Origin: a virus
Lineage: Duplodnaviria > Heunggongvirae > Uroviricota > Caudoviricetes
Virus record (IMG/VR): IMGVR_UViG_3300020050_014748
Strand: one strand, 5' to 3'
Length of the DNA: 64,000 nucleotides
Shown here: piece by piece, positions 9,644 to 27,707 of the stretch
Position numbering within the stretch: the first letter of the stretch is position 1
Layout: the number at the start of each line of letters is the position of its first letter
The notes under the pieces: model-generated
Database searches by the model: none
Told to the model about the DNA's origin: nothing
What the model saw: the letters and a program-made list of their open reading frames with translations, nothing else
Made by a program: the position numbers and the translations under genes

Positions 9644-9675
9644 CCATTATACTCCCCTATATTAAAAAAGTCAAG
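9644..9675 (-). promoter_or_regulatory. sigma70-like consensus promoter (phage promoter family copy)
   Basis: Minus strand reads CTTGACTTTTTTAATATAGGGGAGTATAATGG: -35 TTGACT, 17-nt spacer, -10 TATAAT. Confidence 0.65.
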
Positions 9676-9730
9676 TACTTTTACATAAATAGTGAATCCC
9701 CCAAAAACAAATAGTTTTCAGGGGATTGCT

Positions 9731-9964
9731 TTAGGCACAAAGCTTGGCTGCTTCTAGTGCGATTTCTGGCCTCATAGAGTGACACTTAATTTCATACAGT
9801 TCGTCTTTAGAAAACCATTCAAGGTCTTCTTTGGTTAAACGATCTTCGTAAATTAAGATACTCAACGAAATATTTAAAGAGCGAATTGAGTTCACGATTG
9901 GCGGAACTCTTGTTGTTTCTGGATCCATTTCTTTGTCTGGATCATTTTCAATTTCTAAACTCAT
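9731..9964 (-). CDS. hypothetical acidic protein
   Basis: ORF downstream of the promoter variant at 9985-10014. Confidence 0.4.
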   Translation of the reverse strand: MSLEIENDPDKEMDPETTRVPPIVNSIRSLNISLSILIYEDRLTKEDLEWFSKDELYEIKCHSMRPEIALEAAKLCA

Positions 9965-9984
9965 AATCTGTTTATTTATTAATT

Positions 9985-10014
9985 ACATTATACTCCGGTA
10001 TATTAAAAAAGTAA
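9985..10014 (-). promoter_or_regulatory. promoter family variant (TTTACT -35, TATAAT -10, spacer ...TATACCGGAG)
   Basis: Same architecture as the family, with substitutions in the spacer and the -35. Confidence 0.45.
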
Positions 10015-10019
10015 ATATA

Positions 10020-10256
10020 TTAAAACTTATAAACAAATGAGACAAACTTTTCACCGTGATGTCTATGGTGATACACATAACCAACCTTGTAACAAAACCT
10101 CCTATTCTCACAATTCAATAAAAATTTAAACGCAACATTTGATGAGTTGCGATAAAGGTGTTGGTCAACATAATGGTGACCACGGAAACTCCAGTGATAA
10201 TTCTGTGCCAACACCCTCCCAGAGAGCATTACGGCTAAAAGTACAATCTTTTTCAT
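10020..10256 (-). CDS. small secreted protein (signal peptide MKKIVLLAVMLSGRVLAQ)
   Basis: N-terminal signal-peptide-like segment. Confidence 0.4.
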   Translation of the reverse strand: MKKIVLLAVMLSGRVLAQNYHWSFRGHHYVDQHLYRNSSNVAFKFLLNCENRRFCYKVGYVYHHRHHGEKFVSFVYKF

Positions 10257-10258
10257 TT

Positions 10259-10273
10259 ATTATATTATACCAT
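10259..10273 (-). promoter_or_regulatory. extended -10 promoter (TGGTATAAT) placed for a leaderless transcript of 10020..10256
   Basis: Minus strand reads ATGGTATAATATAATAAATG; the ATG lies about 7 nt after the -10. Confidence 0.35.
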
Positions 10274-10276
10274 AAA

Positions 10277-10303
10277 AAATAACCCTCAAGAAAGGGTTAT
10301 TAA
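10277..10303 (-). terminator. rho-independent terminator after the lysozyme-like gene
   Basis: AATAACCCT-CAAGAA-AGGGTTATT hairpin followed by a T-run on the minus strand. Confidence 0.55.
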
Positions 10304-10374
10304 AAAATGATCTGTAGCCACTAAATACTTTATAAAATAAAATGTGTTATTTGTTGCGAGATCTTTTTGTAAAA

Positions 10375-10902
10375 CTATTTACATGTAACTGTAAAGTTTT
10401 TCTTTAGAAGCTTAGAGTAGAAAGAATATGTTCCACCATTTTTATATGAAACATATGTTGACCATTGGTTTTTATAAGAGTTACCCTTAGAAAAAGCCCA
10501 AGACATCATTTTTATTTGATCATAAGAAGAATTGTAATCTAAACTTTCATTATTTTCCTTCTTATATTTAACCAACCAAAAATCAAACGTCTTTTTATGG
10601 ATACCTGTTACACCCTTACCATGACCGCCATCATGAACAACGTTTTTAAATTTGCTTTCGCAGTACGCTATTTTTGATATAAGTTTAGGGTCTTGATTAA
10701 ACATTGGAGCCACTTCTTCAATAATTTGAGGAATGGTCATTTTGTCTCTTTTTTCCTTCAAGACCTGTTCGGGTGTTAACTCTAACACAATTGACTCTTT
10801 AATGTTTTCATCCTTTATGGGGACATCGAGAGTTTGTGCGTATGATATTGCACCATATCCTATTACAGATATTAGTACAAATAATATAAATGTTCTTAAC
10901 AT
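10375..10902 (-). CDS. lysozyme-like / transglycosylase-like protein with N-terminal signal anchor
   Basis: N-terminal TM segment. The IAYCESKF...HDGGHGKGVTG segment resembles the SLT/transglycosylase 'ES' active-site region. Sits next to the holin-like and amidase genes. Confidence 0.4.
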   Translation of the reverse strand: MLRTFILFVLISVIGYGAISYAQTLDVPIKDENIKESIVLELTPEQVLKEKRDKMTIPQIIEEVAPMFNQDPKLISKIAYCESKFKNVVHDGGHGKGVTGIHKKTFDFWLVKYKKENNESLDYNSSYDQIKMMSWAFSKGNSYKNQWSTYVSYKNGGTYSFYSKLLKKNFTVTCK

Positions 10903-10925
10903 AGTATCGGGGAAGCCCCGACAGG

Positions 10926-11111
10926 CTATACGATCTCTTTCGAAGTACTTGCTCTTAGCATAAAATCTATAACAGATTTTCCAACAGCAATGAATCCGAT
11001 AGTTTGAATAGTTGGGTCTACTGCAAAAATAGCAGCCATAACTCCAGCAATTCCCTGCAGGATCGCAATCCCTACAGTTCTACTTTGATACCACGGTTTT
11101 ACGTCTTTCAT
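10926..11111 (-). CDS. holin-like small membrane protein (2 TM)
   Basis: 61 aa, two hydrophobic helices, charged C-terminus; located between the amidase and lysozyme-like genes. Confidence 0.4.
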   Translation of the reverse strand: MKDVKPWYQSRTVGIAILQGIAGVMAAIFAVDPTIQTIGFIAVGKSVIDFMLRASTSKEIV

Positions 11112-11169
11112 AACAATTTTAAGTGGATTAGCCCACGAGGATAAAACGTTAATTTCTTATCCTATGATT

Positions 11170-11201
11170 ACATTATACTCTAGTATATTGAAAAAGTAAA
11201 C
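11170..11201 (-). promoter_or_regulatory. promoter family variant (TTTACT-N17-TATAAT)
   Basis: Minus strand reads GTTTACTTTTTCAATATACTAGAGTATAATGT. Confidence 0.45.
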
Positions 11202-11205
11202 TTGA

Positions 11206-11820
11206 CTATATTGAATTCATGTACTTTAATACTTTTTCCAATTTAGACTTAGGAACCATAACTTGGATCATTTCTTCCTTAACTTGTGGAATTATCCTTT
11301 TTATAACATCCTGAACAACATCAGATAGATTATCGCCCTTATAAGAGGCTATATCTGTGTGAGTGAGTATTGTATCAGCTTTTAATGGAACTTCGCTCTG
11401 TGAGGCTTGTAGGAGCTCACAGAGGGCTTTTAATTGCCATTCTGTGAGTGTTTTATCTATGGCGGTTATTTTCCCATCGCCATTAACATCATACCCCCAA
11501 GCCATTTCTACTCCAACAAAGAATTTGTTAGGATTATCAAAGTTTCCATCTAATTTCTTAGGTAGAACCTTTCTAGCGCGTTCGTTGGGATTTGATACAT
11601 TACCAGCGTGCCATGCAACGTCCTGTATTTTTACAAGCTGAAAAATTTCACCTTCATTTCTTCCTATAACAAAATGAGCTGACGAACGATTTTCACGATT
11701 ACCGTTAGATAACCATTCTATAGCACCCTTATAAGCACCTAGCGTACCGTGAATCACCCACCCAATCTTTTTTTCTTTCCCTATTGAGTAATTAGGGGTT
11801 TGTTTAAATGGTATTTGCAT
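11206..11820 (-). CDS. N-acetylmuramoyl-L-alanine amidase (Amidase_2/PGRP family), endolysin candidate
   Basis: WVIHGT, SAHFVIGRNGEIFQLV, AWHAGN and GVEMA motifs are typical of T7-lysozyme/PGRP amidases. Confidence 0.75.
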   Translation of the reverse strand: MQIPFKQTPNYSIGKEKKIGWVIHGTLGAYKGAIEWLSNGNRENRSSAHFVIGRNEGEIFQLVKIQDVAWHAGNVSNPNERARKVLPKKLDGNFDNPNKFFVGVEMAWGYDVNGDGKITAIDKTLTEWQLKALCELLQASQSEVPLKADTILTHTDIASYKGDNLSDVVQDVIKRIIPQVKEEMIQVMVPKSKLEKVLKYMNSI

Positions 11821-11843
11821 TTAAACATTATAACATAAAGACC

Positions 11844-12056
11844 CTAAATCTCTGTTCTGTGGGATGCACACTTCTTAGAACAAAACTTCCTGCCTATACT
11901 GGCAATATATTCAGAAACTCTAAAAGTTGATTTACAAAAATCACACTTTAATTCAACAAAAACTTTTACTTCTTTCTTCCTTTTAACTATTTGTATCTTT
12001 TGTTTTGGTAAACCAAAAACATAAAAGAAATCTTGTGGTTTTAATCTTTTGTACAT
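11844..12056 (-). CDS. small zinc-ribbon protein
   Basis: CDFC...CSKKC motifs. Confidence 0.35.
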   Translation of the reverse strand: MYKRLKPQDFFYVFGLPKQKIQIVKRKKEVKVFVELKCDFCKSTFRVSEYIASIGRKFCSKKCASHRTEI

Positions 12057-12058
12057 AG

Positions 12059-12133
12059 TCGGTCTGACTGGATTTGAACCAGTACTCGATCCCTTTTGAG
12101 GGGAGTGTCTCTACCAAATTGGACTACAGACCG
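12059..12133 (-). tRNA. tRNA, anticodon tentatively CAA (reads Leu UUG) but with a short variable loop
   Basis: Reverse complement gives acceptor CGGTCTG/CAGACCG, T-arm ACTGG-TTCAAAT-CCAGT, anticodon loop CTCAAAA and discriminator A. No encoded CCA. Confidence 0.6.
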
Positions 12134-12209
12134 GTAATGTAGAGCAATACCATTCTTGTCAGCTCATAGCTCTGACCGCATGAGTATCAAATTTGGTTTC
12201 TCTACATTG

Positions 12210-12283
12210 TCCGCCCAGCTAGATTCGAACTAGCACTGTGTGGGGTTTAAGTCCACTTCCTCTGCCGATTGGGATATGGGCGG
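12210..12283 (-). tRNA. tRNA, anticodon tentatively UAA (reads Leu UUA), short variable loop
   Basis: Acceptor CCGCCCA/TGGGCGG, T-arm GCTAG-TTCGAAT-CTAGC, anticodon stem GTGGA/CCCAC with loop CTTAAAC, discriminator A. Confidence 0.6.
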
Positions 12284-12304
12284 ATATTTAAATTTAAAAA
12301 CTAG

Positions 12305-12379
12305 TACCCCCGATGTGATTCGAACACATACTATCACGTTTCTAAGACGTGCGACTCCTTCCAGTTGGTCTACAGGGGC
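12305..12379 (-). tRNA. tRNA, anticodon tentatively UAG (reads Leu CUA), short variable loop
   Basis: Acceptor GCCCCTG/CGGGGGT with two G-U pairs, perfect anticodon stem CACGT/ACGTG with loop CTTAGAA, T-arm ATGTG-TTCGAAT-CACAT, discriminator A. Confidence 0.6.
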
Positions 12380-12542
12380 ATTTGCCATTCCAATATTTTT
12401 TAAAGAAGACTATTTCATGGCTCGATAAACTTCTAGTGAGTTTTTGTTGTTTTTGTTTTCTCACTGTATCGTGTTAGGTTTACGGATTTCTCCAGGTGTG
12501 TACCTTACGGCCTCTTACCCCAAGTATTCCACGATATAAAAA

Positions 12543-12779: not shown

Positions 12780-12792
12780 AATTTTTTATTGG

Positions 12793-13080: not shown

Positions 13081-13107
13081 ATTTTACATATTATATTTAT
13101 AAAACAG

Positions 13108-13186: not shown

Positions 13187-13190
13187 ATGG

Positions 13191-13675: not shown

Positions 13676-13695
13676 AATTTTTATTACTCACCTAG

Positions 13696-13767: not shown

Positions 13768-13798
13768 ATTTAGGTAGATTTCTCTACCTAAAAACTAA

Positions 13799-13969: not shown

Positions 13970-13993
13970 ATTGTTTTAAAAATTAATTAATAA

Positions 13994-14067: not shown

Positions 14068-15107
14068 TGGTGAACCATGCTTGCTAAGCCTGTGGTATAT
14101 GCCTTTAAGTATTTCTACCGGCAATCTTTTCTCTGGTACTAGCTTTGTGTACATTATTGGGTCAGTCAACCCGCGCCCCAATCTTCCTTCAGGTGGACGT
14201 GTAGGGAGTTACACCCTAATCTTTAATCGGTATCTTAACTTAATCTACATTGCCTGTCTGAATATACATCAGCGGTTTCCGCTTGGTTCACCAGCATATT
14301 TTATTTTTTTATCACTTCCGTATAATAAAAAAACTCCGAAAGCTATCTTGCAAATATTATGCGTACATCCACACTGCAAGAGTTATGTGGAGTACACACC
14401 GCTAGGCTGTTACGAGACCGAAGTCTGCGAAAGAGAAAAACGGAGAAACGATAGACTGGTTTGAGTTTATCAAGAGATCACTTTTAAGAGATATGATCAT
14501 ACTCTGCTATGCAAAATTAAAATAAACAACTAAATCGAAATTCGTCACGCCCAAGTGCAGGCCACGCGCTACCCATCACGGTTTCAAGTATACCCCTTGG
14601 TTTCACTCCAAAGTTACAACTATACCGTGCCTCACTACAGCCCCCATTTTTATCTGGGCTCTATAGAAGCCTTGTCCGCCTGCGAAACATTTAATTTTAA
14701 TGAACTGCGAGCCGACCTAGACTTGCACTAGGACGAACGGTTTTGGAGACCGAAATGCTGCTATTACATCATCGACTCAAGATATGTGAGTACGATATAT
14801 TGCTGAGTGCTATATAAACAAAACTTCAGTCAATCATAACGACAACACCACATATCCTCATTATTGCGACAATGGATAAGAGAAGCCTTAGCTGTTCTGT
14901 CCACTGCAATAATGAGAGTGTTACAGTAATGTAACACATGTGCGAGATAAGAGACTTGGACTCTTTTTTTCAGTTTGGAAAACTGACGTAATACCGTATA
15001 TACCAATCTCGCATAACTAATGGGACTTTAACAAAATAAATCATAATATGATTTAACCTGGTTTATTTCATTCACCAGAATCCCACTAATTCTCATCACT
15101 TACAAAT
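14068..15107 (-). ncRNA. candidate large structured non-coding RNA (about 1 kb, ORF-free, locally GC-enriched), transcribed from the consensus promoter at 15108-15139 toward the tRNA cluster
   Basis: No ORF of 60 aa or more on either strand across about 1 kb in an otherwise gene-dense genome. GC is higher than the flanks. Long-range helix TGGTGAACCA (14068-14077) pairs with TGGTTCACCA (14275-14284). Perfect hairpins include GTGTTACA-GTAA-TGTAACAC near 14925-14944. A family promoter lies immediately upstream on the minus strand and tRNA-Pro immediately downstream. Confidence 0.35.
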
Positions 15108-15139
15108 CCATTATACTCCCCTATACTAAAGAAGTCAAG
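15108..15139 (-). promoter_or_regulatory. promoter family copy with no protein gene downstream (drives the ORF-free region and tRNA cluster)
   Basis: Minus strand reads CTTGACTTCTTTAGTATAGGGGAGTATAATGG. Confidence 0.6.
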
Positions 15140-15160
15140 ACTATTATTCTACCATAAGTT

Positions 15161-16847: not shown

Positions 16848-17156
16848 CTAAGAATACAACTCAACGCACTCTTGTATTTTTTTTGACTTATAATTTTCTT
16901 CAACACACTGACTTCTAATTTCACTATTATCAATACCGTAACATGGGTCATTAGAAGTATTCACATCGACACTTTCTGTTGTTTTTTGTATTGCAGATTT
17001 TTCAAACTTTGAATTTCTGTCATCAAGATAAGTACTATTAATTACATCTTTTGATTCTTTATTTTCAGATACCGAAGCCAAGATTACAGAAATAAGTATC
17101 CCCATGATAGCAATTATTGTTAATACCTCTATTAATGTAAAACCTTTATTTTTCAT
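16848..17156 (-). CDS. type IV prepilin-like protein (class III signal peptide)
   Basis: MKNKG|FTLIEVLTIIAIMGILISV matches the prepilin peptidase site G|FTLIE with Glu at +5 and a hydrophobic helix. Confidence 0.55.
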   Translation of the reverse strand: MKNKGFTLIEVLTIIAIMGILISVILASVSENKESKDVINSTYLDDRNSKFEKSAIQKTTESVDVNTSNDPCYGIDNSEIRSQCVEENYKSKKIQECVELYS

Positions 17157-17157: not shown

Positions 17158-18012
17158 CTATTTAATATTTATAAATGGAACAGAATTACCCATCATGTAC
17201 TGAGGTACATCACCTTTCCATTGTTTAATAGCTTGCAATTGAACATAATCAGCTCCACCCTGTGAGTTAATAGCCTGAGACTGAATTTTAATTGATTCTG
17301 CCTCACCTTGAGCTTGAACAATCTTCTGTTCCTTTTCGTACTTAGCTTGTTCTAGTTTATTTTTAGCACCTAGGGCACTTTGCTCAGCTGTAACTTTTAA
17401 TTCCACAGCCTCACTAAATGCTTTTGAGAATTCAAAATTGGTAACTGAGAAATCCTCAAGAATAGAGCTTTTTTCTGTGAGTTGCGTATCAAGTATCATG
17501 TTAACCTTGTCACTATATTCAGATCTCTTTGTAACAAGTTCCTCTGCTGTAAATTCTGCTGAGGTTGACTTAACAATTTGACGAACCATTGGTTCAATAA
17601 CATTTACTTCATAATTATCAACAGAACTATACTGTGAATATATTTGTATCGCCTTAGTTGGGTCAACGTGATATGTTACAACAACACCAATCTTTACATC
17701 TTGAAGATCTTTTGATGCACCAAATAATTCTGATGTATCCTTTGAATCTCCCTCTTTACCATTCTTATCGTAATTTATTGTTCTAGTCTTAACATCCATC
17801 TTGTAGACTTTTTCAATAACTGGAAACTTCAAATAAGGTCCTTGATTAATTATCCCAACTACTTTTCCGAGCCGTGTTTTAACTCCAACAGATCCTGCTT
17901 TTATAATCCCGAAACTGCTAAATACGAGAACAGTTAGAACCAAACCAATAACTATATGCTTAATAACCTTACCTACATTCAACTCACCATTTTCTTTTGT
18001 ATACATTTTCAT
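17158..18012 (-). CDS. SPFH/Band-7 (prohibitin/HflKC-like) membrane protein
   Basis: N-terminal TM, then an SPFH core and a C-terminal coiled coil (AEQSALGAKNKLEQAKYEKEQKIVQAQGEAE). Confidence 0.7.
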   Translation of the reverse strand: MKMYTKENGELNVGKVIKHIVIGLVLTVLVFSSFGIIKAGSVGVKTRLGKVVGIINQGPYLKFPVIEKVYKMDVKTRTINYDKNGKEGDSKDTSELFGASKDLQDVKIGVVVTYHVDPTKAIQIYSQYSSVDNYEVNVIEPMVRQIVKSTSAEFTAEELVTKRSEYSDKVNMILDTQLTEKSSILEDFSVTNFEFSKAFSEAVELKVTAEQSALGAKNKLEQAKYEKEQKIVQAQGEAESIKIQSQAINSQGGADYVQLQAIKQWKGDVPQYMMGNSVPFINIK

Positions 18013-18056
18013 TTAATTTTTATTATTAATATTGTAATACTTCGACTATTACAATT

Positions 18057-18088
18057 CCATTATACTCCCCTATATTAAAGAAGTCAAG
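18057..18088 (-). promoter_or_regulatory. promoter family copy
   Basis: Minus strand reads CTTGACTTCTTTAATATAGGGGAGTATAATGG; overlaps the 3' end of the helicase gene. Confidence 0.65.
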
Positions 18089-19739
18089 AGGTTCCTTCAA
18101 TTAAATAATCTAATTCTGATTTTTGCGTCTCAATAACTTGATTAAATATACTTGACTTCTTTTTAAGCAACCTTGCCATAAAATCATCAATTGTATTAAT
18201 GGCGTGCAAGCTATAAATATTAACAGAATCAGCTTTCTGCCCTGGTCGATGTAAACGATTAGCACCCTGTTCGTGATCAGATGGAGTCCAGCTGTAATCT
18301 ATAAAAATTACATTTGTTGCAGCGGTAAGAGTTATACCAGCACTTGCAGATTTAATACCTCCGAAAAATACCTTACAGTTTGGGTCTTCTTGAAATTTTT
18401 TGACCAACTCTCCTCTTTCACTAACACTTGTTTCAGCAATAATTAAAACAGAATCCGGATATTCATCACGAAGAATTTTTAATGGTTCATTGAAACAAGA
18501 GAACACAATCACCTTCTCTCCTGAATCTATCATTGAATCAATAAGTTCTCTTGTTGAATCTAATTTTCCAAGAGAAGTTAACTCTCTTAAGTAATTAATT
18601 TTCACAAGCTTTTCAGCAGAAAGAGATTTTTCAATTTGCTTATCTTTTTTACCTTTATTTTCACGAAGGTATTTTACAAACTCATCAGATATTTTTTTAT
18701 AATTTGATTTAAATTCTCCAGATAATTCAATCGGTCTAAAAATTTGGATCATTGGTGGTAACTCTTTTAATATTTGATCTTTTGTTCTTCTTAAAAAATA
18801 CTTACCAATCTTTTCACTAAGCTCTGCAAGGTTTGTTGCCCCTTTTGCTTGATACCCATAATATCCCTTCTGGCCGTCACAATATTTCTCAGCAAAACCA
18901 TAATAACTATTCCATGTTTTCGGATCTAGAATATTAAGCATGTTATACATCTCGATAGGCCTTGACAAGATCGGAGTTCCACTAAGCATTATTATTGAAG
19001 GTATATCTCTCGATAAAAGTTTAACAACTTTACTTCTTACAGATGTTGGTGTTTTTATTAAATGACTTTCATCACAAACCATTGTGTCAAATTTAACATT
19101 AACTAACCACTTATAAAATTTCTTAAGAATATCATAATTAATTATTATAACATCAACATCATTTGGAATTTCTTGTGTTTTTGTTTTTCCATCAACAACA
19201 AAAGATTTTAAATGTGTCCACCTTTCAACTTCTAACTGCCAAGAAAATTTCACAGACGCTGGGCAAATAATTAAAGATTTTTTAAATTTCTGTTTTACGA
19301 TAAAAGCAAGAGTCTGTAGTGTTTTTCCACTCCCTGGGGAATCCGCCAGTATTGCCCTCCCATTATTATTCATAAAAAACTCAACACCAATTTTTTGGTA
19401 ATTATATAATTCCCCCTTAATCCCATCAATAACAATATCAGAATCAATTGAATTTTTTATCCTCTTTGCATTCTCCTCTATCTCTGATTCACTTCTTTTT
19501 TCATCATCAGTTTTTTGAACAGCAGAAAGTGCCTCTTGGCTAATCACCACATCTGGGTATTTATTCTTTATCAAAAACATTATAGCAGAATCATTAAATC
19601 TCCATTTACCATTATTAAAAGTAAACTCTTTCCAACCATACGCTGATCTTATAAATCTACAGTATTCTATAATATCCTCATGAAATCTGAACTCAAATGT
19701 AAACTCATAATATTCTGTTTTTTCATAATTTATATACAT
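18084..19739 (-). CDS. SNF2-family DEAD-like helicase/ATPase
   Basis: Walker A ILADSPGSGKTLQ, DEAH-box-like MVCDESH, helicase C motifs (GGIKSASAGITLTAATNVIFID, QGANRLHRPGQ). Confidence 0.75.
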   Translation of the reverse strand: MYINYEKTEYYEFTFEFRFHEDIIEYCRFIRSAYGWKEFTFNNGKWRFNDSAIMFLIKNKYPDVVISQEALSAVQKTDDEKRSESEIEENAKRIKNSIDSDIVIDGIKGELYNYQKIGVEFFMNNNGRAILADSPGSGKTLQTLAFIVKQKFKKSLIICPASVKFSWQLEVERWTHLKSFVVDGKTKTQEIPNDVDVIIINYDILKKFYKWLVNVKFDTMVCDESHLIKTPTSVRSKVVKLLSRDIPSIIMLSGTPILSRPIEMYNMLNILDPKTWNSYYGFAEKYCDGQKGYYGYQAKGATNLAELSEKIGKYFLRRTKDQILKELPPMIQIFRPIELSGEFKSNYKKISDEFVKYLRENKGKKDKQIEKSLSAEKLVKINYLRELTSLGKLDSTRELIDSMIDSGEKVIVFSCFNEPLKILRDEYPDSVLIIAETSVSERGELVKKFQEDPNCKVFFGGIKSASAGITLTAATNVIFIDYSWTPSDHEQGANRLHRPGQKADSVNIYSLHAINTIDDFMARLLKKKSSIFNQVIETQKSELDYLIEGTS

Positions 19740-19751: not shown

Positions 19752-19781
19752 AGTATACTCTCTTATATTAAAAAAGTCAAG
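19752..19781 (-). promoter_or_regulatory. promoter family variant (TTGACT-N17-TATACT), near-leaderless for the SNF2 gene
   Basis: Minus strand reads CTTGACTTTTTTAATATAAGAGAGTATACT; the -10 ends about 6 nt before the ATG at 19739. Confidence 0.55.
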
Positions 19782-19824: not shown

Positions 19825-19838
19825 TGCTATAATTATCA
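19825..19838 (+). promoter_or_regulatory. possible extended -10 promoter (TGCTATAAT) for the first plus-strand gene
   Basis: TGnTATAAT lies about 25 nt upstream of the ATG at 19863, in the divergent intergenic region; the -35 is weak. Confidence 0.3.
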
Positions 19839-19862: not shown

Positions 19863-20144
19863 ATGGAAAATAAAAATAGCAATAGAATTTTTTCAACAAG
19901 AGACCTTTATCTAGCAACAACCCTTGTAACTCTCAAGTTTTACATGACAGGTATTGATGTTCAGTACGAAGGCAACAAAAACCAGTCTATCGGTTATTTC
20001 AAATTTGAAGATACCCCAGAAATACAAGATGCAAAGCAACAGTATATCCAGGGAATGCTCCAAGTTGAACCGAAAGCATTTGTGACAAACATGCATTCTC
20101 TCAAAGCAGAGATCGTGAATGCACAAAACAACCCCTCAAGATAA
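19863..20144 (+). CDS. hypothetical protein
   Basis: ORF followed by a terminator hairpin. Confidence 0.45.
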   Translation: MENKNSNRIFSTRDLYLATTLVTLKFYMTGIDVQYEGNKNQSIGYFKFEDTPEIQDAKQQYIQGMLQVEPKAFVTNMHSLKAEIVNAQNNPSR

Positions 20145-20158: not shown

Positions 20159-20180
20159 CCCTCTCTTGAGGGTTTTTGTT
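20159..20180 (+). terminator. rho-independent terminator
   Basis: CCCTC-TCTT-GAGGG hairpin followed by TTTTTGTT. Confidence 0.6.
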
Positions 20181-20197: not shown

Positions 20198-20226
20198 TTG
20201 ACTTCTTTAATATAGGGGAGTATAAT
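20198..20226 (+). promoter_or_regulatory. promoter family copy (TTGACTTCTTTAATATAGGGGAGTATAAT)
   Basis: Exact TTGACT-N17-TATAAT. Confidence 0.7.
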
Positions 20227-20255: not shown

Positions 20256-21029
20256 ATGAAATATAATATAAATATAAATCAAAAAGTTTTAGAAAAAAGC
20301 ACACTAAATTTAATAGATTGTGCTATTTTGGACTGGGTAATAACAATATGCTCTTCAAAAAACGACTCAATTGAAGAAAAAAGAATCGAAGGAATGACAT
20401 GGATTGATTACAATACCATTATTTCTGATATGCCCCTACTTCGCATCAAAAGCAAGAGTGCATTAACACCAAGGTTTAAAAGGATAGAGAACGAAGGATA
20501 CATAAAAACAAAAATGGTTGGTACTGGTAGTGCCCAAAAGATGTTCGTTTCACTCACAGAAAAGATAGACAGCCTGTTCATTGAAACGAACGGACCGTTC
20601 ATAAAAATGAATGGAGCCGTTCACGAAAACGAACAGGGAGCCGTTCACGAATGTGAACATATCATTATACTAGATACTAATCATTATACTAATGATAAGG
20701 ATATGTGCAATGATGGTAAAAAAGAAGATTCTTTTAACCAATTTTGGTTGGAATACCCAAAGAAAGAGAACAAAATAAAAGCAAGAGAAAAATGGTTTAA
20801 AAAAGGTTTTGAAAAAGATATAGATAAAATCCTTGGTTTTATAAAAGAGGCAAAAAAAACAGATCGTTGGAAAAAAGGTTTTATAAAAGACCCAGTCACT
20901 TTTTTAAACAAGCAATCTTGGTATGACGACCTGACTGAGTATTACGACCGCTCGTCATCCCCAGCAGGGGTCCATAAAGACCGCAATGAAAATGATTATA
21001 TGAAAAATGTTATAAAATTAAAAAACTAA
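20256..21029 (+). CDS. replication initiation / replisome organizer-like protein (DnaD-like C-terminus), contains internal iterons
   Basis: C-terminal FNQFWLEYPKKENKIKAREKW is typical of the phage replisome-organizer/DnaD-like domain. An internal direct-repeat cluster lies at 20591-20658, and a DnaC-like loader follows. Confidence 0.45.
   Translation: MKYNININQKVLEKSTLNLIDCAILDWVITICSSKNDSIEEKRIEGMTWIDYNTIISDMPLLRIKSKSALTPRFKRIENEGYIKTKMVGTGSAQKMFVSLTEKIDSLFIETNGPFIKMNGAVHENEQGAVHECEHIIILDTNHYTNDKDMCNDGKKEDSFNQFWLEYPKKENKIKAREKWFKKGFEKDIDKILGFIKEAKKTDRWKKGFIKDPVTFLNKQSWYDDLTEYYDRSSSPAGVHKDRNENDYMKNVIKLKN
20591..20658. repeat. iteron-like direct repeats (3 copies of G(G/A)NCCGTTCA) plus inverted repeat GTTCAC-GAAT-GTGAAC inside the initiator gene; candidate replication origin
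   Basis: cggaccgttcat, ggagccgttcacgaa and ggagccgttcacgaa at 20591-20651; palindrome at 20643-20658. Confidence 0.45.
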
Positions 21030-21030
21030 T

Positions 21031-21588
21031 ATGCTTAAGACACAAATAAAACCTCGGTACAAAGATTCTTCCGTTAAAAATATAAATTCTGGTATATATA
21101 AAATGCTCGAAGAATCTATAAAAAAAAGAGAACCACCTTGTTTATATATCTTTGGTGACACAGGAGTTGGGAAAACATACATTGCATATGCAATTTATAA
21201 CCTAGTTACGGAACACGGCCTTCCGTGTGTCGTAGTGAGGGGCCTAGATATTGTTGAAGCAATAAAGGGAACATTTACAGGTCTCCCCCATTACGAAAGT
21301 CCCCAATATGAATCAACGGTTGAAATGATGCAGTTTCTAAAAGATTTAAGTGAGTATAAGGGACTTTTAATTATAGACGATGTTGGTGTTGAAAAATCAA
21401 GTGAGGCGGTGATTGTAAAAATGTTTCAGATTATAAATGACCGGTACGAATGGATGTACCCAACAACTTATACGAGTAATCTGGACCTTAACGAATTAAA
21501 AGAAAAAGTTGGAGATAGAATAGTTGGTAGAATTGTTGAGGATTGTGAAATTATAAAATTAGAAGGTAATAATAAAAGAAATGAATAA
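21031..21588 (+). CDS. DnaC/IstB-like AAA+ helicase loader
   Basis: Walker A GDTGVGKTYIAYA, Walker B LLIIDDVG. Confidence 0.65.
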   Translation: MLKTQIKPRYKDSSVKNINSGIYKMLEESIKKREPPCLYIFGDTGVGKTYIAYAIYNLVTEHGLPCVVVRGLDIVEAIKGTFTGLPHYESPQYESTVEMMQFLKDLSEYKGLLIIDDVGVEKSSEAVIVKMFQIINDRYEWMYPTTYTSNLDLNELKEKVGDRIVGRIVEDCEIIKLEGNNKRNE

Positions 21589-21746
21589 TAAAATAGAATT
21601 AAAAAAAGAAATAGTGACAACAGTTAAGGAAAATGAAATCTTAATGTCTTTTAATAACGACTCAGATGCTGAGTTATACGTCCAATGGTGGAATGATGTT
21701 GGACGTGAGTTGATTGAAGATTATTTGTTTGATAAGAATTTTTAAT
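21582..21746 (+). CDS. small hypothetical protein (54 aa)
   Basis: Manual ORF; ATGA overlap with the upstream stop codon. Confidence 0.3.
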
Positions 21747-21764
21747 AATTAAATTAAATGAAAT

Positions 21765-21962
21765 ATGATAAGTGATTATATTCTGGTGGACAAAAAGGGT
21801 CCATATTCAGTAAAGAGATGTCGTTTTTGTTATAACGTTATTTGGGGAGACCAAGTTTCAGCTGGTGATTTTTGTGATATTCATTGTAAGAATGACGGAT
21901 TATCACAAGATAGAAAAATAAAAAGTAAAGAGAAAAAAGATAGTAAATCTACGAGTTTATAA
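21765..21962 (+). CDS. small Cys-rich protein
   Basis: CRFC...CDIHC motifs. Confidence 0.35.
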   Translation: MISDYILVDKKGPYSVKRCRFCYNVIWGDQVSAGDFCDIHCKNDGLSQDRKIKSKEKKDSKSTSL

Positions 21963-21979
21963 ATTAACAAACGAGATAC

Positions 21980-23734
21980 ATGATAAATGAAAAATTATTA
22001 AAAATAGCAGAGAGAGCAATTTCTATCGGGTGGTCTTTAATCCCCGTAGGGGAAGATAAAGTTCCTCTTATTCCTTGGAAGAAATACCAGACAGAAAAGG
22101 CTGATCTTGAACAGATAAAAAAATGGCTTGAAATATATCCATCAATGCAACTTGGTGTAGCTACTGGCAAGTTAAGTAATTTACTTGTAGTTGATTTCGA
22201 GAATGGTGCAGATTTTGATTTGATTAAAGATAAAACATTTAAGGTCCGTACTGGGTCTGGTGGAGTTCATGCTTATTTTCAGCACGAAGAAGGATTCAAG
22301 AATGCAGTTAGAATATTCCCATTAGTGGATATACGTTCAGAAGGTGGGTACTGTGTAACGGTTGGTTCAAAAACAACAAAAGGAGAATATTCAATTTTAA
22401 ATGATTGTCCTATTGTAAAAATGTCACCAGAAACTAGGGCTCTTCTATTGGGTGGGACAAAAAAAGAGGTAGAGATTAAAACAGAAAAATCAGAACCAGC
22501 TTCTGAAGAAATACAATCAGATGCATTCTTCCTTCTTGAATCATACCCAGGTTACGGCAAGGGTGTTCGCAATGAAGAAATAACTAGGTTTATTGGAAAG
22601 GTTCTCTCCAGAATACACCCTGCACACTGGGAGACATACGGATGGGAGATTATCGTGAAAGCTAACCAGAAAAACACCCCTCCATTATCAACAGGAGAGC
22701 TCTACGCATCGTTTAGGAGCATAAAAGGTATTGAGACCCGAAAAACTCCATTAACGGCCTCTACGGTCAAAAATGAGCCGAATAACGCCCTCCTCGAGCA
22801 CCTTTCTGACGGTAGTGACGAAGTAAAACACATCTCAATTGTAGCTTCTGAACAAGTTGTTGACCAAGATGATGTTTACCCACTCGAAATGAAATGTTTC
22901 GATGACTTGATAATGGGCGGTGCCTCACCAGGTGACCTTGTTTCGGTTGCGGGAAGAACAGGTGAGGGTAAATCGTCTATTGCTCAAGATTGGACACTTA
23001 GTTTTATCAGAGGACCCAAAAAGGCACCTGTACTTTGGTTCTCTTATGAACTTTTACCAAGTCACCTTTGGAAGAAGTTTAAAACAATGGGAATGACAGA
23101 AGATGATATTACTGTTATACCAGCCAAACACACATCAGGAAATGTTGCATGGGTTGAGGCAAAAGTTAAAGAAGCAAAAGAAAAATTTAATATAAAGGTT
23201 GTTGTGATAGACCACCTCGGATTTCTTCTTCCAAAAACAAATGGAATACTAGGAAAGAATATGTCACAAAACCATGCTACTTTTGTAACACAAATAGTGA
23301 GAGACTTAAAAACAATAGCATTAAGTGAAGAAGTTATAATTGTTCTACCTGTACACGTAAGAAAAACAAACGGAGCATTGGATATTGAAAGTATAAAGGA
23401 CACCGCGGGGGTAGCTCAAGAAAGTGACCTTGTGTTTTTAATAGAAAGAGAAAGAGATACAGGTAAAGATTCAAAGGGTTATTTTACTGAATATACAAAA
23501 ATAACATTAGCAAAAAATCGTAAGACAGGACAAACACTATCAGCATGGTTTACGATGATAAATGAAAGATTCGCTTACTCAGATCGAAACGAGGATGAAA
23601 AGAAAGCAGTCGAAGGATGGAATGAAATGACAAGTACAACAACTCCATCATCGTATCAAGTTCCAGAAGAAAAAGAAGAGAAAGAAGTGGTTGTTGTTAC
23701 AAAAAGTATGTTGGATGAAATAGACGATGAATAA
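21980..23734 (+). CDS. primase-helicase: N-terminal bifunctional Prim-Pol domain plus C-terminal DnaB/RepA-like (RecA-fold) helicase
   Basis: N-terminus SIGWSLIPVGEDKVPLIPWKKYQ...LLVVDFEN is Prim-Pol-like. C-terminal Walker A VAGRTGEGKSSIA and Walker B VVVIDHLGFL. Confidence 0.65.
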   Translation: MINEKLLKIAERAISIGWSLIPVGEDKVPLIPWKKYQTEKADLEQIKKWLEIYPSMQLGVATGKLSNLLVVDFENGADFDLIKDKTFKVRTGSGGVHAYFQHEEGFKNAVRIFPLVDIRSEGGYCVTVGSKTTKGEYSILNDCPIVKMSPETRALLLGGTKKEVEIKTEKSEPASEEIQSDAFFLLESYPGYGKGVRNEEITRFIGKVLSRIHPAHWETYGWEIIVKANQKNTPPLSTGELYASFRSIKGIETRKTPLTASTVKNEPNNALLEHLSDGSDEVKHISIVASEQVVDQDDVYPLEMKCFDDLIMGGASPGDLVSVAGRTGEGKSSIAQDWTLSFIRGPKKAPVLWFSYELLPSHLWKKFKTMGMTEDDITVIPAKHTSGNVAWVEAKVKEAKEKFNIKVVVIDHLGFLLPKTNGILGKNMSQNHATFVTQIVRDLKTIALSEEVIIVLPVHVRKTNGALDIESIKDTAGVAQESDLVFLIERERDTGKDSKGYFTEYTKITLAKNRKTGQTLSAWFTMINERFAYSDRNEDEKKAVEGWNEMTSTTTPSSYQVPEEKEEKEVVVVTKSMLDEIDDE

Positions 23735-23915
23735 TTTACAGAGATGTGGAGCGTGTGGAGAATGGCAACAAGATCCAAGTTTATTTTCACAAGAAGAACA
23801 AAATATGCCGGAGTTGATTCATTGTGGATGTGAAAATGAAGAAGAGATTAGGTATGTAAGTAGGGATATGGCTATTGATGCAGGTGACTTATCATTAGAA
23901 GGTCAAAGATATTAA
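23727..23915 (+). CDS. small Cys-containing protein
   Basis: ORF with an 8-nt overlap with the upstream gene. Confidence 0.35.
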   Translation: MNNLQRCGACGEWQQDPSLFSQEEQNMPELIHCGCENEEEIRYVSRDMAIDAGDLSLEGQRY

Positions 23916-23917
23916 TT

Positions 23918-24151
23918 ATGGATGAAAAGAAAATAACACAAATACTAGAAAGTTTTGATGTTCCACTTGAAAAAATAGATGAGATTGTTCTTGTTATGTT
24001 AAAAGAGGCAGAACAGGGTAAAGTACAAAGAACAATATCAGAGAAAGAAGAATTTATAACAAGATCACATTTGCAACATTTAATTGATAATGAACCAGAC
24101 TGGAGAAAGAAGGCATTGATAGCCGGTTACTTTTTCGGCAAGATAGTTTAG
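23918..24151 (+). CDS. hypothetical protein
   Basis: ORF. Confidence 0.4.
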   Translation: MDEKKITQILESFDVPLEKIDEIVLVMLKEAEQGKVQRTISEKEEFITRSHLQHLIDNEPDWRKKALIAGYFFGKIV

Positions 24152-24157
24152 TGATAC

Positions 24158-24186
24158 TTGACTTCTTTAATATAGGGGAGTATAAT
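24158..24186 (+). promoter_or_regulatory. promoter family copy placed for a leaderless mRNA
   Basis: Identical 29-mer TTGACTTCTTTAATATAGGGGAGTATAAT; the ATG at 24193 lies 7 nt after the -10. Confidence 0.7.
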
Positions 24187-24192
24187 GGAATT

Positions 24193-24906
24193 ATGAATAA
24201 AGTTGTAGTCATAGGAGATATTCACGGGAGGGATATCTGGAAAAAAATTACAGAGAAAGAGAAAGATGCCGATAAGATAATATTTATGGGAGATTATTTT
24301 GATAGTTTTGATATACCATTCTATGAACAGTTTGATAACTGGATAGAGATAATTAAATTCAAAAAAGAAAATCCAGAAAAGGTTGTGTTGTTGATCGGGA
24401 ACCATTGTTTTCATTACATATCAGAAACAGAAAAATATTCAGGATATCAAAGAAATTACGCTCTAAAGATCGGTACAAGTATACAAAATGCGATAGATAC
24501 CAACTTGATGCAAATATCGTATCTTAATAATAAATTCTTGTTCACTCATGCTGGTGTTTCTCAAAAATGGCTTGAGTCACACGTTGAGAGTATGTTGGAT
24601 CTAGAATACACACCAGATGTTGCGTTAACTAAATTATTTATAAGTAGACCTGAATCTTTTAATTTTAATGGATCAGATTCATCAGGTGATGACATAACAC
24701 AGTCACCTATATGGATAAGACCGAAGAGTCTAGACAAGGTGAGAGTTCCAGGATTTATTCATGTAGTTGGACATACAGGAACAAGGGGTATAGAAACGTG
24801 GCTTCAACCACCAAAGTTTGATGAAGGAATAATATTAGTAGATTCATTAAGGTATAAAGAGTATTTAATAATTAAGAATGACCGACTAGAAGTTGGTAAA
24901 ATATAA
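24193..24906 (+). CDS. PPP-family Ser/Thr protein phosphatase (lambda PPase/ApaH-like metallophosphoesterase)
   Basis: VVIGDIHGR, FMGDYFDSF, LIGNHCFH, FTHAG and VGHTG motifs. Start moved to 24193 (MNKVVVIGD) because the 24151 Met lies inside the promoter. Confidence 0.7.
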   Translation: MNKVVVIGDIHGRDIWKKITEKEKDADKIIFMGDYFDSFDIPFYEQFDNWIEIIKFKKENPEKVVLLIGNHCFHYISETEKYSGYQRNYALKIGTSIQNAIDTNLMQISYLNNKFLFTHAGVSQKWLESHVESMLDLEYTPDVALTKLFISRPESFNFNGSDSSGDDITQSPIWIRPKSLDKVRVPGFIHVVGHTGTRGIETWLQPPKFDEGIILVDSLRYKEYLIIKNDRLEVGKI

Positions 24907-25690
24907 AATGATAAATTTTTTTAAAAAAATAATATTAGGAGATAAAAAGAAAGGGTTTGTTTTTACTACAAATAACATACGAGTAAGAACAGGTAATGGT
25001 GATCTTATAAACCAGCCAGAGTTCGGTGGGTGGACACCTATTTCTAGTTTTATGGTTGATTCCTCGGATGTTGGAAATGTTGGTGTGAATACTGGTAGTA
25101 ATTCTGTTGCTGTATTTACTGGTCAGCAAAAGCAAGAGGATAGTAGAATAGCTGTCGAGCCAAAGGCGGTTTTTGAGGAAATCAAAAGAGAGTCACCGGA
25201 AATATCTTTTGAAAACTTAGAAGAGAAAATAAAAGTTGTCACAGAAAGAATAAATATACTTAAAGACCACCTTAGTGATGAGCATTTGAAAGATGAACAT
25301 CGTTCTGTTTTTTATCTAAAGAATAGATTAAAATACCTTAAGACAAAAACTAAAAATCCATTAGATTGGGCCATGACAACAAATGAGGCAGTTGTTGATT
25401 TATGTAAAAGATATAAATTAAAAGTTGTACCCTTGAAGCAATATTACACTCTTGTTCCGAACGAGGGTATCCAAGAAATGGATCGTTACACAAAAGCATA
25501 CAAAGCAATAACTGGTGACACACCAATCTTTACACTTGTTGTAAAAGACACAGAAGTTAAAGAACAAACAAAGAAAGACAGAGATCCTATCTTGTTAGCA
25601 AACTCTCCACTTGGAAATTTTATGTTTATACTCGGAGCCTGGGACGATGAAATTTTATACATTGATGAGATAATATATGGCGGTAAGTAA
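24893..25690 (+). CDS. hypothetical protein
   Basis: ORF. Confidence 0.45.
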   Translation: MVKYKMINFFKKIILGDKKKGFVFTTNNIRVRTGNGDLINQPEFGGWTPISSFMVDSSDVGNVGVNTGSNSVAVFTGQQKQEDSRIAVEPKAVFEEIKRESPEISFENLEEKIKVVTERINILKDHLSDEHLKDEHRSVFYLKNRLKYLKTKTKNPLDWAMTTNEAVVDLCKRYKLKVVPLKQYYTLVPNEGIQEMDRYTKAYKAITGDTPIFTLVVKDTEVKEQTKKDRDPILLANSPLGNFMFILGAWDDEILYIDEIIYGGK

Positions 25691-25840
25691 ATGAAAACAA
25701 TATCAATGAATGACGTACAGACAGTAGAAAGATTTTATTGTCCATACAAAAAATGTGAAGCAGAGAATGAGTCTTATTATCTTGAAGAGGGAGAAATAGT
25801 TACATGCATCTCTTGTGGTATGGATATAAAGATAAAATAA
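25691..25840 (+). CDS. small zinc-ribbon protein (49 aa)
   Basis: Manual ORF with CPYKKC...CISCG motifs. Confidence 0.3.
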   Translation: MKTISMNDVQTVERFYCPYKKCEAENESYYLEEGEIVTCISCGMDIKIK

Positions 25841-25871
25841 AATTTACTAATAATTAATTGTATAAAATAGC

Positions 25872-25985
25872 ATGAATGATGATTATTTAGATTTTGAAGA
25901 GGAAGATAGTTTTGATGCTGACTTTGGTGAATATATTGAAGATGACGAAGAAGATGATTATTATGATAATTCAAGAGAGATATGA
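25872..25985 (+). CDS. 37-aa highly acidic peptide (MNDDYLDFEEEDSFDADFGEYIEDDEEDDYYDNSREI)
   Basis: Manual ORF; ATGA overlap with the next gene. Asp/Glu content above 50%. Confidence 0.25.
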   Translation: MNDDYLDFEEEDSFDADFGEYIEDDEEDDYYDNSREI

Positions 25986-26170
25986 AGAAACCCAAATATA
26001 GAATAGGAGATATTGTTTTGTATGAAAATATAGATAGAGATGGATTAATGTATATGGTTAAGGTGATTAGTGGGTATAAACATAACAAAACATGGCACTA
26101 CAGGATTGAATCACCTGGACAATGGTATTGCCCTAGTGTACCAGAGAGTGATATTATTAGTTTAAAATAA
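25982..26170 (+). CDS. hypothetical protein
   Basis: ORF. Confidence 0.4.
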   Translation: MKKPKYRIGDIVLYENIDRDGLMYMVKVISGYKHNKTWHYRIESPGQWYCPSVPESDIISLK

Positions 26171-26176
26171 AAAAAT

Positions 26177-27211
26177 ATGGCAAAGAAAAAAGAATTAGAA
26201 GATGTAAATAACCCAAACGAGCTTGTTGAAGATGTAATGGCTCGGATGCAAAAAAAATATGGAAACGACATGGTTATTGTCGATGAGGATCTTGATGTTT
26301 CAGAAGTAAAAGCAATACCAACTGGGAGTTTTGGACTAGATTCAGTTTTTGGCTGTGGAGGTATTCCACGGGGAAGAATGATAGAATTGTTTGGTCAGGA
26401 GTCTAGTGGAAAATCAACACTGTCTCATTATTTAATCGCGGAAGTTCAAAGACAAGGTGGAAGAGCTGCCCTTATTGATGCTGAATTCTCTTATGATCCA
26501 CGCTACACATCTTCTATTGGTGTTGATACATCAAAACTACTTGTTACACAACCATTACACTTAGAAGCTGCAATGGAAACACTCAGGGAGCTTGTTGATA
26601 CAAATGCATTTGATATCATTGTTGTAGATAGTGTTGCGGCTATGGCTCCAATGACAGAAATTGAAGGAGATTTTCTTAAGGATACAATGGGTCTTCAAGC
26701 AAGAAAGCTCGGTGCTGCTCTTAGAGTACTAACTGGTTCAATATCTCGATCTAAAACAATTGTAATATTCATAAACCAACTTAGAGAGAAGATTGGTGTT
26801 ATATATGGAAAAAAAGAAACCACTCCTGGAGGAAAGGCGTTGAAATTTTTTGCATCAGTAAGACTTGAGGTATCTAAGGGTGAAAAAATAGTTGATTCAG
26901 ACGATAAGCAGATAGGAAATTTCTTGAATATTACAGGGGTAAAAAATAAAGTCGGATTCCCTTTTATGAAAACATCAGTTGAATTATATTATGGTAAAGG
27001 ATTGGATTTACATGGCGATGCTTTGGATTATGGGGAGAAAATCGGGGTCATTAATAAGACAGGTACAACCTATTCATTTAATGATACGAAACTTGGAGTT
27101 GGACGCAATAATGCAAAAAACTTCCTTATTAAGAATGGAGATACTTACGAGGCCGTACTTAACGCAATTAAAGAAGAAATAAAATGTCAAAAAGAATCTC
27201 AAGTAAAGTAA
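26177..27211 (+). CDS. recA: RecA recombinase
   Basis: GSFGLDSVFGCGGIPRGRMIELFGQESSGKSTL (Walker A), IIVVDSVAAM, and conserved RecA blocks throughout. Confidence 0.85.
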   Translation: MAKKKELEDVNNPNELVEDVMARMQKKYGNDMVIVDEDLDVSEVKAIPTGSFGLDSVFGCGGIPRGRMIELFGQESSGKSTLSHYLIAEVQRQGGRAALIDAEFSYDPRYTSSIGVDTSKLLVTQPLHLEAAMETLRELVDTNAFDIIVVDSVAAMAPMTEIEGDFLKDTMGLQARKLGAALRVLTGSISRSKTIVIFINQLREKIGVIYGKKETTPGGKALKFFASVRLEVSKGEKIVDSDDKQIGNFLNITGVKNKVGFPFMKTSVELYYGKGLDLHGDALDYGEKIGVINKTGTTYSFNDTKLGVGRNNAKNFLIKNGDTYEAVLNAIKEEIKCQKESQVK

Positions 27212-27675
27212 AGGAAATCTACGATTACATAACAAGTAAAAATAAAGAATCCGTGCAAAATGGAAACAAACTATTACCTATCTGTTATGCAGTGATCTTA
27301 GATAAAAATAAAACTGTTTCAATAATGGACATACCGCTTTACAATTATGTAGCCGGGGAGGTTGATAGAATATTAAAAGAAACTGGGAAAGTATTAAAAC
27401 AAAACAAAGCAAATGTTAAGATGTTTATGTACACAACACAAGGTAATGTAACAAACAATAAAACAGGAGAATCAAGTGAATGTTTAATATTTTCAGCAAG
27501 AGATTGTTATAATAATAAATACTTTCAAATACTAGAGATACTACGGGGTGAAAAAATAGATTTTAAAAAAAAGATCTCACACTCACCAAAAGACTGGAAG
27601 GATGGGAAAAAGAAGAGTGATTTTAAAGATACCCTCCTTGACATAATATGGTTTGAGTATAAGAATGTTAGGTAG
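27184..27675 (+). CDS. hypothetical protein
   Basis: ORF overlapping the recA 3' end by 28 nt. Confidence 0.45.
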   Translation: MSKRISSKVKEIYDYITSKNKESVQNGNKLLPICYAVILDKNKTVSIMDIPLYNYVAGEVDRILKETGKVLKQNKANVKMFMYTTQGNVTNNKTGESSECLIFSARDCYNNKYFQILEILRGEKIDFKKKISHSPKDWKDGKKKSDFKDTLLDIIWFEYKNVR

Positions 27676-27678
27676 TAC

Positions 27679-27707
27679 TTGACTTCTTTAGTATGGGGGA
27701 GTATAAT
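27679..27707 (+). promoter_or_regulatory. promoter family copy placed for a leaderless mRNA
   Basis: TTGACTTCTTTAGTATGGGGGAGTATAAT; the ATG at 27714 lies 7 nt after the -10. Confidence 0.65.

Follow-up and report, generated by a model that had tools for sequence, protein, structure and literature searches.

What reads a set of near-identical phage promoters, and why should the sequence between their hexamers be as alike from copy to copy as the hexamers themselves? This question is raised by a 64,000-nucleotide stretch of the IMG/VR record IMGVR_UViG_3300020050_014748 (hereafter the window), a segment of a tailed-phage genome with 32-37% G+C. A sequence-only reading of the window had noticed nine sigma-70-type promoters with a conserved spacer, and had proposed that the spacer contains an extra recognition element, that a phage-encoded sigma factor or activator or an extended discriminator might be involved, and that the sites form a single temporal class marking operon starts in two divergent gene blocks. 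Comparison of the window with eleven related genomes leads us to regard the nine copies as probable strong early or middle promoters for the RNA polymerase of the host in combination with its primary (sigma-70-type) sigma factor, in which the spacer is made up of two parts, namely a short block beside the -10 hexamer that is conserved throughout the clade and a central part that differs between genomes. In these terms the family is an ordinary kind of phage early-promoter set, with the small conserved block beside the -10 as an extra.

A search of the whole window with the 29-mer TTGACTTCTTTAATATAGGGGAGTATAAT, using 100 dinucleotide-preserving shuffles as a control, recovered six sites with three or fewer mismatches as against none in the 100 shuffles, and upon relaxing the threshold to eight substitutions in 29 nt exactly nine sites were found, with 0-6 mismatches. 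These are the nine copies of the sequence-only reading, whose coordinates proved right to within 1-2 nt, and they constitute the top repeat family of the window, both direct and inverted. The spacer is 17 nt long in all nine. The -35 hexamer is TTGACT in seven copies and TTTACT in two (9987 and 11172), close to the TTGACA of primary sigma factors, and the -10 hexamer is TATAAT in eight copies and TATACT in one (19752), at the distance of 17 +/- 1 nt that is typical of these factors. Four copies carry the spacer string AATATAGGGGAG without change, four others have one or two changes in it, and the 11172 copy has four. The near-identity that had been claimed is therefore true of the spacing throughout and of six copies, but three copies are clearly diverged. 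The six close copies match 11 of the 12 consensus hexamer positions with a 17-nt spacer, and are at the same time the six best sigma-70-type matches in the region from 8.6 to 28.5 kb.

Similarity between copies starts 1-3 nt before the -35 (usually tAC) and stops a few bases past the predicted start (TATAAT-GgAAtT-R), beyond which it drops sharply into unrelated flanks. The core promoter can thus be described as a unit of 36-41 bp (about -38 to +3) comprising AC, TTGACT, a 17-bp spacer with a purine-rich G block at -17 to -13, TATAAT and a purine 7 nt further on, at which transcription would start; this purine is present in eight of the nine copies, preceded by T in seven and by C in one. All nine copies are intergenic and point toward the next gene, and they are spread across 18 kb with one per transcription unit. 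In the window no occurrence of the spacer motif was found outside the promoter copies and no dyad symmetry was seen in the spacer, while the 41-nt unit has no stem-loop (folding energy -0.5 kcal/mol, z = 0.26). Terminator-like hairpins lie just upstream of the copies at 9646 and 20198 only, and outside the repeat unit.

No match to the region was returned by a near-identity DNA search of 50,697 phage records, and a protein search with the primase-helicase returned only distant matches of less than 30% identity, with no cultured relative in that phage collection. Motif scans of IMG/VR and of 185,579 species genomes were likewise without a match, and a metagenome motif scan recovered only strain variants of the same phage (86-99% identical). 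Searches with RecA and the SNF2 helicase uncovered a large clade, with contigs mostly of ~55-110 kb, from which loci were taken from eleven further genomes, making twelve with the window (relatives and strain variants are designated below by L-numbers). In relatives with orthologously placed promoters RecA is ~75-90% identical and the G+C content ranges from 30 to 46%; these promoters keep the hexamers, the spacing and the leaderless ATG, and change in their spacer centres. The clearest case of an orthologous promoter keeping its place (four genomes) is the copy at 27679, located after the gene that follows RecA: its orthologues in L037, L038 and L035 have retained the 6-nt distance between -10 and ATG with different spacers. 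The conservation of hexamers, spacing, start purine and position across such deep divergence and such a range of G+C is strong comparative evidence that these are working primary-sigma promoters.

To define what is conserved beyond the hexamers, sites in the twelve genomes were selected on one criterion, a perfect TTGAC followed at 16-18 nt by an equally perfect TATAAT or TATACT, which yielded 47 sites, two of them coding coincidences in dUTPase genes. At these sites A is present at -37 in 40 and C at -36 in 41 of the 47, a purine at -17 in 44, G at -16 in 35, G at -15 in 44, A or T at -14 in all 47, a purine at -13 in 46, and in 42 the 7th nt past the -10 is a purine. The TG at -15/-14 that typifies extended -10 (TGn) promoters is seen in none of the 47. 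Hence, beyond the hexamers only an R-G-G-W-R block (-17 to -13) and the AC before the -35 are conserved clade-wide. Conservation of the bases that follow the -10 (GGAATT or GTAATT) is limited to the window genome and its closest relatives, which speaks against the extended discriminator that had been suggested. The two sites within dUTPase genes (L037 19350-19378 and L038 11528-11556) were rejected as family members because the protein motif GYRGEYN spells GGGGAGTATAAT and thereby mimics the family; the coding sequence runs ...GGGGA(G/A)TATAAT..., with a TTGACA 17 nt before it, and calls for caution in motif scans. In a distant subclade (L013, L036, L039, L040 and L046) the -35 lies within an 11-bp palindrome, ACTTGACAAGT, in most promoter copies, the spacer is mostly 16 nt long and the -10 is TATACT.

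The two parts of the spacer have evolved in different ways. The GGGAG beside the -10 of the window copies belongs to the clade-wide R-G-G-W-R block, which is probably under selection and functional. Contact with the polymerase is plausible, given that sigma-70 senses spacer bases near -18, with R451 among the side chains involved (Singh et al. 2011, PMC3130263). As in that case and in TGn promoters, where sigma region 3 and R451 are involved, bases just upstream of the -10 could add to promoter strength; unlike in TGn or TRTG promoters, what is conserved here is G at -16/-15 together with a purine at -13. Comparison across the clade suggests that the G block and the AC probably tune polymerase binding, and that the spacer centre would be free to vary between phages. 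Within the window's subclade the centre (-23 to -18) is 35% identical between genomes as against 64-81% within genomes. The spacer version is TCTTTAATATAG in the window, TTTTTAACGTTG in L042, TTTTTAACA followed by a variable part in L043 and L037, TTTGGAATnGGA in L045 and AAGTAAAAAGAT in L046; in L044 and L035 it is largely variable, with the copies of one genome differing widely. The AATATA centre is specific to the window genome and, being only ~35% identical between genomes, is not generally required by RNA polymerase. The proposal of an extra recognition element in the spacer thus survives for the five nucleotides beside the -10 and the AC, conserved in twelve genomes, but not for the AATATA centre.

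The likeness of spacer centres within genomes points to concerted evolution, through copying or gene conversion by phage recombination, or to lineage-specific factors. Between strain variants the promoter unit differs at 2 of 410 positions as against 78 of 2971 in the 150-nt flanks (Fisher p = 0.005). The likeness of the centres may reflect either recent shared ancestry or homogenisation by recombination or gene conversion, and the phage possesses recombination genes of its own (RecA, a Mre11/Rad50-like pair, RuvC and an exonuclease).

The copies are confined to the part of the genome concerned with replication, recombination, nucleotide metabolism and tRNAs. The leftward block, from 19739 down to ~3450, encodes a SNF2 helicase, an SPFH protein, a pilin-like protein, nine tRNA genes and a tmRNA-like gene, as well as a glutaredoxin, an endolysin-like amidase, an SLT-like protein (weak match), an exonuclease and many small open reading frames (ORFs). 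The rightward block (20256-39508) encodes a replication initiator-like protein, an IstB/DnaC-like ATPase, a primase-helicase, a metallophosphatase, a RecA of the bacterial type (26177-27211), a Mre11/Rad50-like pair, RuvC, a peptide deformylase (34087-34656), a dUTPase and a GroEL-type chaperonin (36767-38398). The virion block (39524-64000, minus strand) comprises virion and tail proteins, cell-wall hydrolases and a holin. By their position the copies head replication, recombination, nucleotide-metabolism and tRNA/tmRNA units on both sides of the divergent region, and their placement and orientation make it plausible that they are operon starts in both blocks, as had been proposed.

On the plus strand, the copy at 20198-20226 (0 mismatches; predicted start 20233) forms the rightward arm of the divergent region, with a terminator just upstream at 20159-20172, and would drive the replication operon, in which the initiator-like gene (20256), the IstB/DnaC-like gene (21031) and the primase-helicase gene (21980) follow one another. 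The copy at 24158-24186 (0 mismatches) fills a 41-nt gap between genes, and its predicted start at 24193 is the A of the metallophosphatase ATG, which implies a leaderless mRNA if the start is as predicted; the same layout (TATAATggaattATG) is also present in the relative L037. Similarly, the copy at 27679-27707 (2 mismatches) fills a 38-nt gap, and has its predicted start at 27714, on the A of the ATG that opens ORF 27714-28154, again implying a message without a leader. In both cases the start codon's A is the 7th base past the -10. The alternative ORFs 24151-24906 and 27693-28154, with a GTG or ATG start inside the promoter, are artefacts of ORF calling.

On the minus strand, the leftward arm of the divergent control region is the copy at 19752-19780 (4 mismatches; TTGACT-17-TATACT), with the ATG of the SNF2 helicase at 19739, 12 nt past its -10; orthologues of this copy precede SNF2 in L042, L043 and L044. 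The copy at 18059-18087 (0 mismatches; predicted start ~18052) overlaps the SNF2 stop codon by 4 nt and would drive the SPFH/Band-7 gene (17158-18012), the pilin-like gene (16848-17156), whose product has a type-IV-pilin N-terminal methylation motif, and further genes. The leader of its transcript (18013-18052, minus strand) contains a hairpin, GTAATAgtcgaagTATTAC, right at the 5' end, which may stabilise or attenuate the message. The copy at 15110-15138 (1 mismatch; predicted start ~15103) precedes a stable-RNA operon running from 15012 down to 12058, with nine tRNA genes (eight called by ARAGORN and one from an Rfam scan), the tmRNA-like gene and small ORFs, and its orthologues head tRNA arrays in L042 and L044. 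The tRNA not called by ARAGORN lies at 14708-14778, and the tmRNA-like gene (14191-14552, minus strand), also not called by that program, matches Rfam RF00023 over the full model length at 46.3 bits as against a gathering threshold of 47. The most diverged copy, at 11172-11200 (6 mismatches; TTTACT-17-TATAAT; predicted start ~11165), would drive the ORFs 10926-11111 and 10375-10902, the latter with a weak, sub-threshold match to the Pfam SLT domain; its leader (11112-11165, minus strand) holds a hairpin of the form AGGATAA...TTATCCT, for which a stabilising or attenuating role may likewise be considered. The diverged copy at 9987-10015 (4 mismatches; TTTACT-17-TATAAT, with a spacer ending in ATATACCGGAG; predicted start ~9980) precedes ORF 9731-9964, and its orthologue in L004 differs by one base. 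Finally, the copy at 9646-9674 (1 mismatch; TTGACT-17-TATAAT; predicted start ~9639) would transcribe the exonuclease gene (8440-9609) and a long leftward operon down to ~3450; it has a terminator-like hairpin 20 nt upstream (9727-9695) and is unchanged in the strain variant L004.

In addition to this family (class I), the window contains a second class of candidate promoters. The motif TGNTATAAT occurs at 17 sites in the window as against 6.4 expected; seven of these are intergenic and oriented toward a gene, and most of the seven share TTtATGnTATAAT and have no -35 element. These class-II sites possess the TG at -15/-14 of the canonical extended -10 (TRTGnTATAAT), with an ATG 6-9 nt past the -10 in most. 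On the minus strand the ATG of the endolysin-like amidase gene (11206-11820) comes 6 nt after the site at 11827-11835 (TGTTATAAT), the site at 10264-10272 precedes ORF 10020-10256, and four others (48510-48518, 53099-53107, 58547-58555 and 61170-61178) precede genes of the virion block. The presence of class-II sites before the lysis gene and several virion-block genes makes it plausible that the class-I copies share a temporal class.

The only class-II site on the plus strand, at 19825-19833 (TTATGCTATAAT), precedes a small DUF5659 gene (19863-20144); this gene is placed between the two divergent promoters of class I, with an extended -10 and a terminator of its own. This arrangement recurs in four of six relatives, in a form like that of the window in L042 and L044 and more weakly in L036 and L039, and it is less clear or absent in the listed stretch or at the listed gene start of L043 and L040. 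The DUF5659 product is 51-93% identical across the clade and more conserved than its neighbours. The model predicted from the single sequence was poor, and an alignment-based AlphaFold model was good (predicted local distance difference test, pLDDT, of 88). The product was considered as a DNA-binding regulator and set aside, having no sequence match in the PDB and no significant structural match for the alignment-based model; a literature search on DUF5659 found nothing on such a role.

The translation signals of the window bear on the nature of the host. A Shine-Dalgarno-like motif precedes only 6 of 76 window genes, and the leaders are A-rich, with AAT before the ATG; on account of this scarcity and the A-rich leaders the host probably does not use Shine-Dalgarno pairing. 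The two class-I copies that would start RNA exactly at AUG fit such a host. Among the species genomes the closest RecA comes from a short contig assigned to an Ignavibacteriales bin, which looks phage-like because RecA is followed there by the same overlapping 165-aa gene, and a DUF5659 homologue is found on a short contig binned as Candidatus Paceibacterota. These two weak hints as to the host are in conflict.

Several other explanations of the family have to be weighed against primary-sigma promoters. The spacer centre, with or without the G block, could be the site of a phage regulator (a repressor, an activator or an appropriator of the polymerase) by which the class is turned on or off as a whole and which evolves together with its sites in every lineage, an explanation that we regard as unlikely. 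The copies of the window, L042, L045 and L046 each share the spacer version of their own genome, high identity within and low identity between genomes is what co-evolution with a trans-acting factor would produce, and the very conserved DUF5659 gene is always found between the divergent promoters. However, no DNA-binding domain was recovered in the scanned window proteins, the DUF5659 model matches no known fold, DNA-binding or other, and neither the dyad symmetry usual in repressor sites of the operator or stoperator type nor copies away from promoters were seen, though the genome-specific spacers leave room for a factor. Furthermore, as the spacers of L044 and L035 vary widely within one genome, a centre-binding factor is not general in the clade. 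A broader version, which we hold to be a minor possibility, would see in RGGWR and the AC a new promoter element read by the host primary sigma or by a phage protein such as the DUF5659 product, with the spacer centres as lineage-specific regulator sites that switch the early class, in a host without Shine-Dalgarno sites that is possibly Patescibacteria-like. A reading by a phage-encoded sigma factor or phage RNA polymerase in place of the host primary sigma is very improbable. In the Bacteroidota, which belong to the FCB group, the main sigma factor uses motifs other than TTGACA/TATAAT, and a host from this group would be consistent with the absence of Shine-Dalgarno sites, the A-rich leaders and the Ignavibacteriales-binned relative. 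Moreover, small proteins with a sigma-70 region-4 domain are encoded by the relatives L035 (5243-5503 and 7336-8091) and L039 (18582-18923); these comprise 86-251 aa with little beyond the region-4 helix-turn-helix, and might bind -35 elements or the polymerase. Yet they have no homologue in the window, and a scan of 62 window proteins against Pfam found no domain of a sigma factor, an RNA polymerase or a helix-turn-helix regulator. The hexamers follow the consensus of primary sigma factors exactly, unlike those of promoters read by phage sigma factors (SPO1 gp28, T4 gp55), the class-II sites have the canonical TRTGnTATAAT that points to the standard host enzyme, and the other short related contig is binned in Candidatus Paceibacterota and not in the FCB group. 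The phage-encoded sigma of the sequence-only reading finds no counterpart among the 62 scanned proteins and is not supported.

It could also be asked whether the repeats are promoters at all, or instead origin iterons, sites for packaging or partition, or what is left of a mobile repeat once dispersed. Nothing beyond their being repeats favours this, and we find it scarcely credible: they occur once per transcription unit over 18 kb, always toward the next gene, what the genomes conserve is precisely the hexamers, spacing and start purine, and the end of similarity at -38 and +3 means that the sites do not belong to any larger repeat; membership in a larger dispersed repeat was what the sequence-only reading had named as an outcome that would refute it. 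Another proposal, to our mind improbable, is that the copies serve as short homology patches for the recombinational shuffling of promoter-led cassettes, with recombination maintaining their identity. The precedent is provided by the PeSL (promoter-early stem-loop) cassettes of T4-type phages (Arbiol et al. 2010, PMC2839356; Comeau et al. 2014, PMC4122927), in which a sigma-70-like early promoter is coupled with a stem-loop in a conserved unit of ~100 bp, and for which recombination between repeated early promoters, shuffling orphan genes, has been shown experimentally (PMC2839356). As in PeSLs, repeated sigma-70-like early promoters, often with a G run, are found here in a phage with its own recombination proteins (RecA, SbcCD-like proteins, RuvC and an exonuclease), near-identity over 36-41 bp is available in both orientations, and some genes are flanked by copies: SNF2 is so flanked both in the window and in L044, despite its other place and orientation there. 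The differing positions of SNF2 and SPFH cassettes in L039, L040, L044 and L046 are suggestive only. Unlike PeSLs, however, the unit has no stem-loop and is 36-41 nt instead of ~100 nt long, the copies lie in a replication module and not in orphan-rich regions, and the breakpoints between close relatives (the window versus L001-L006, and the Metallophos-RecA replacement versus M43) are not at copies. For these reasons of stem-loop, length and breakpoints the sites are not PeSLs, although recombination between copies may still homogenise them.

Certain observations weigh against our preferred explanation of the family as primary-sigma promoters whose likeness is maintained within each genome. 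Promoter activity, start sites and timing are all inferred from the sequence. The search for a sigma factor covered the 64-kb window of a genome of ~80 kb, so ~16 kb lie outside it, and the region-4 proteins of L035 and L039 show that relatives do encode domains of this kind. If the host were a member of the Bacteroidota, its main sigma factor would not use these hexamers, a concern sustained by the paucity of Shine-Dalgarno sites and the Ignavibacteriales bin. With respect to homogenisation, private variants of individual copies are stable between strains, and because of this gene conversion is rare, if it occurs; strain-level insertions and deletions, too, are not located at the promoters. 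Lastly, the single temporal class is plausible given that other gene sets use the extended -10, but it is not a clean one because the three diverged copies sit among lysis-like genes.

Families of host-type early promoters are well known from lytic phages, e.g. those of T5 (such as N25), T7 (A1-A3), SPO1 and T4. The class-I family resembles these, going by general knowledge of them, in that many near-consensus primary-sigma copies head early units and are alike beyond the hexamers. It differs from them in that the whole 17-nt spacer is alike almost base for base, in having no conserved A/T-rich upstream element, in the G-rich RGGWR in place of TG beside the -10, and in the several predicted leaderless messages; here, furthermore, both phage and host are uncultivated. 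Switches from -35/-10 promoters to extended -10 promoters in the course of phage development are mediated by AsiA in T4 and by gp39/gp76 in the Thermus phage P23-45. The two classes of the window likewise differ in their need for a -35, and the -35-dependent type is on early functions, with the extended -10 type on one lysis gene and several virion-block genes. It could be conceived that a switch disabling -35 recognition would turn class I off as a block. The likeness is a hypothesis only, and unlike in those systems no AsiA-like or gp39-like protein was identified here.

If this interpretation holds, the family amounts to a transcription map for a widespread clade of uncultivated phages (~55-110 kb), marking early unit starts, leaderless messages and another promoter type. 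It also offers a clue to the host, which would have a standard TTGACA/TATAAT polymerase and make no use of Shine-Dalgarno pairing. The G block and the within-genome homogenisation of spacers raise small questions about promoter recognition and the concerted evolution of regulatory repeats, and the 41-bp unit is a candidate for a strong portable promoter.

The strain-level insertions mentioned above are 0.4-2.7 kb long (1270-4014 and 5678-6813 in L002, 1793-2206 and 6016-6511 in L004, and 377-1136 in L001), and correspond to window positions 21747, 23401, 15005, 10380 and 17170. They look like mobile endonuclease or RNA-repair cassettes. In relatives, RNA ligase, PNKP and HNH genes occupy the place that separates the DnaC-like gene from the primase gene, and one of the strain insertions breaks the primase-helicase gene.

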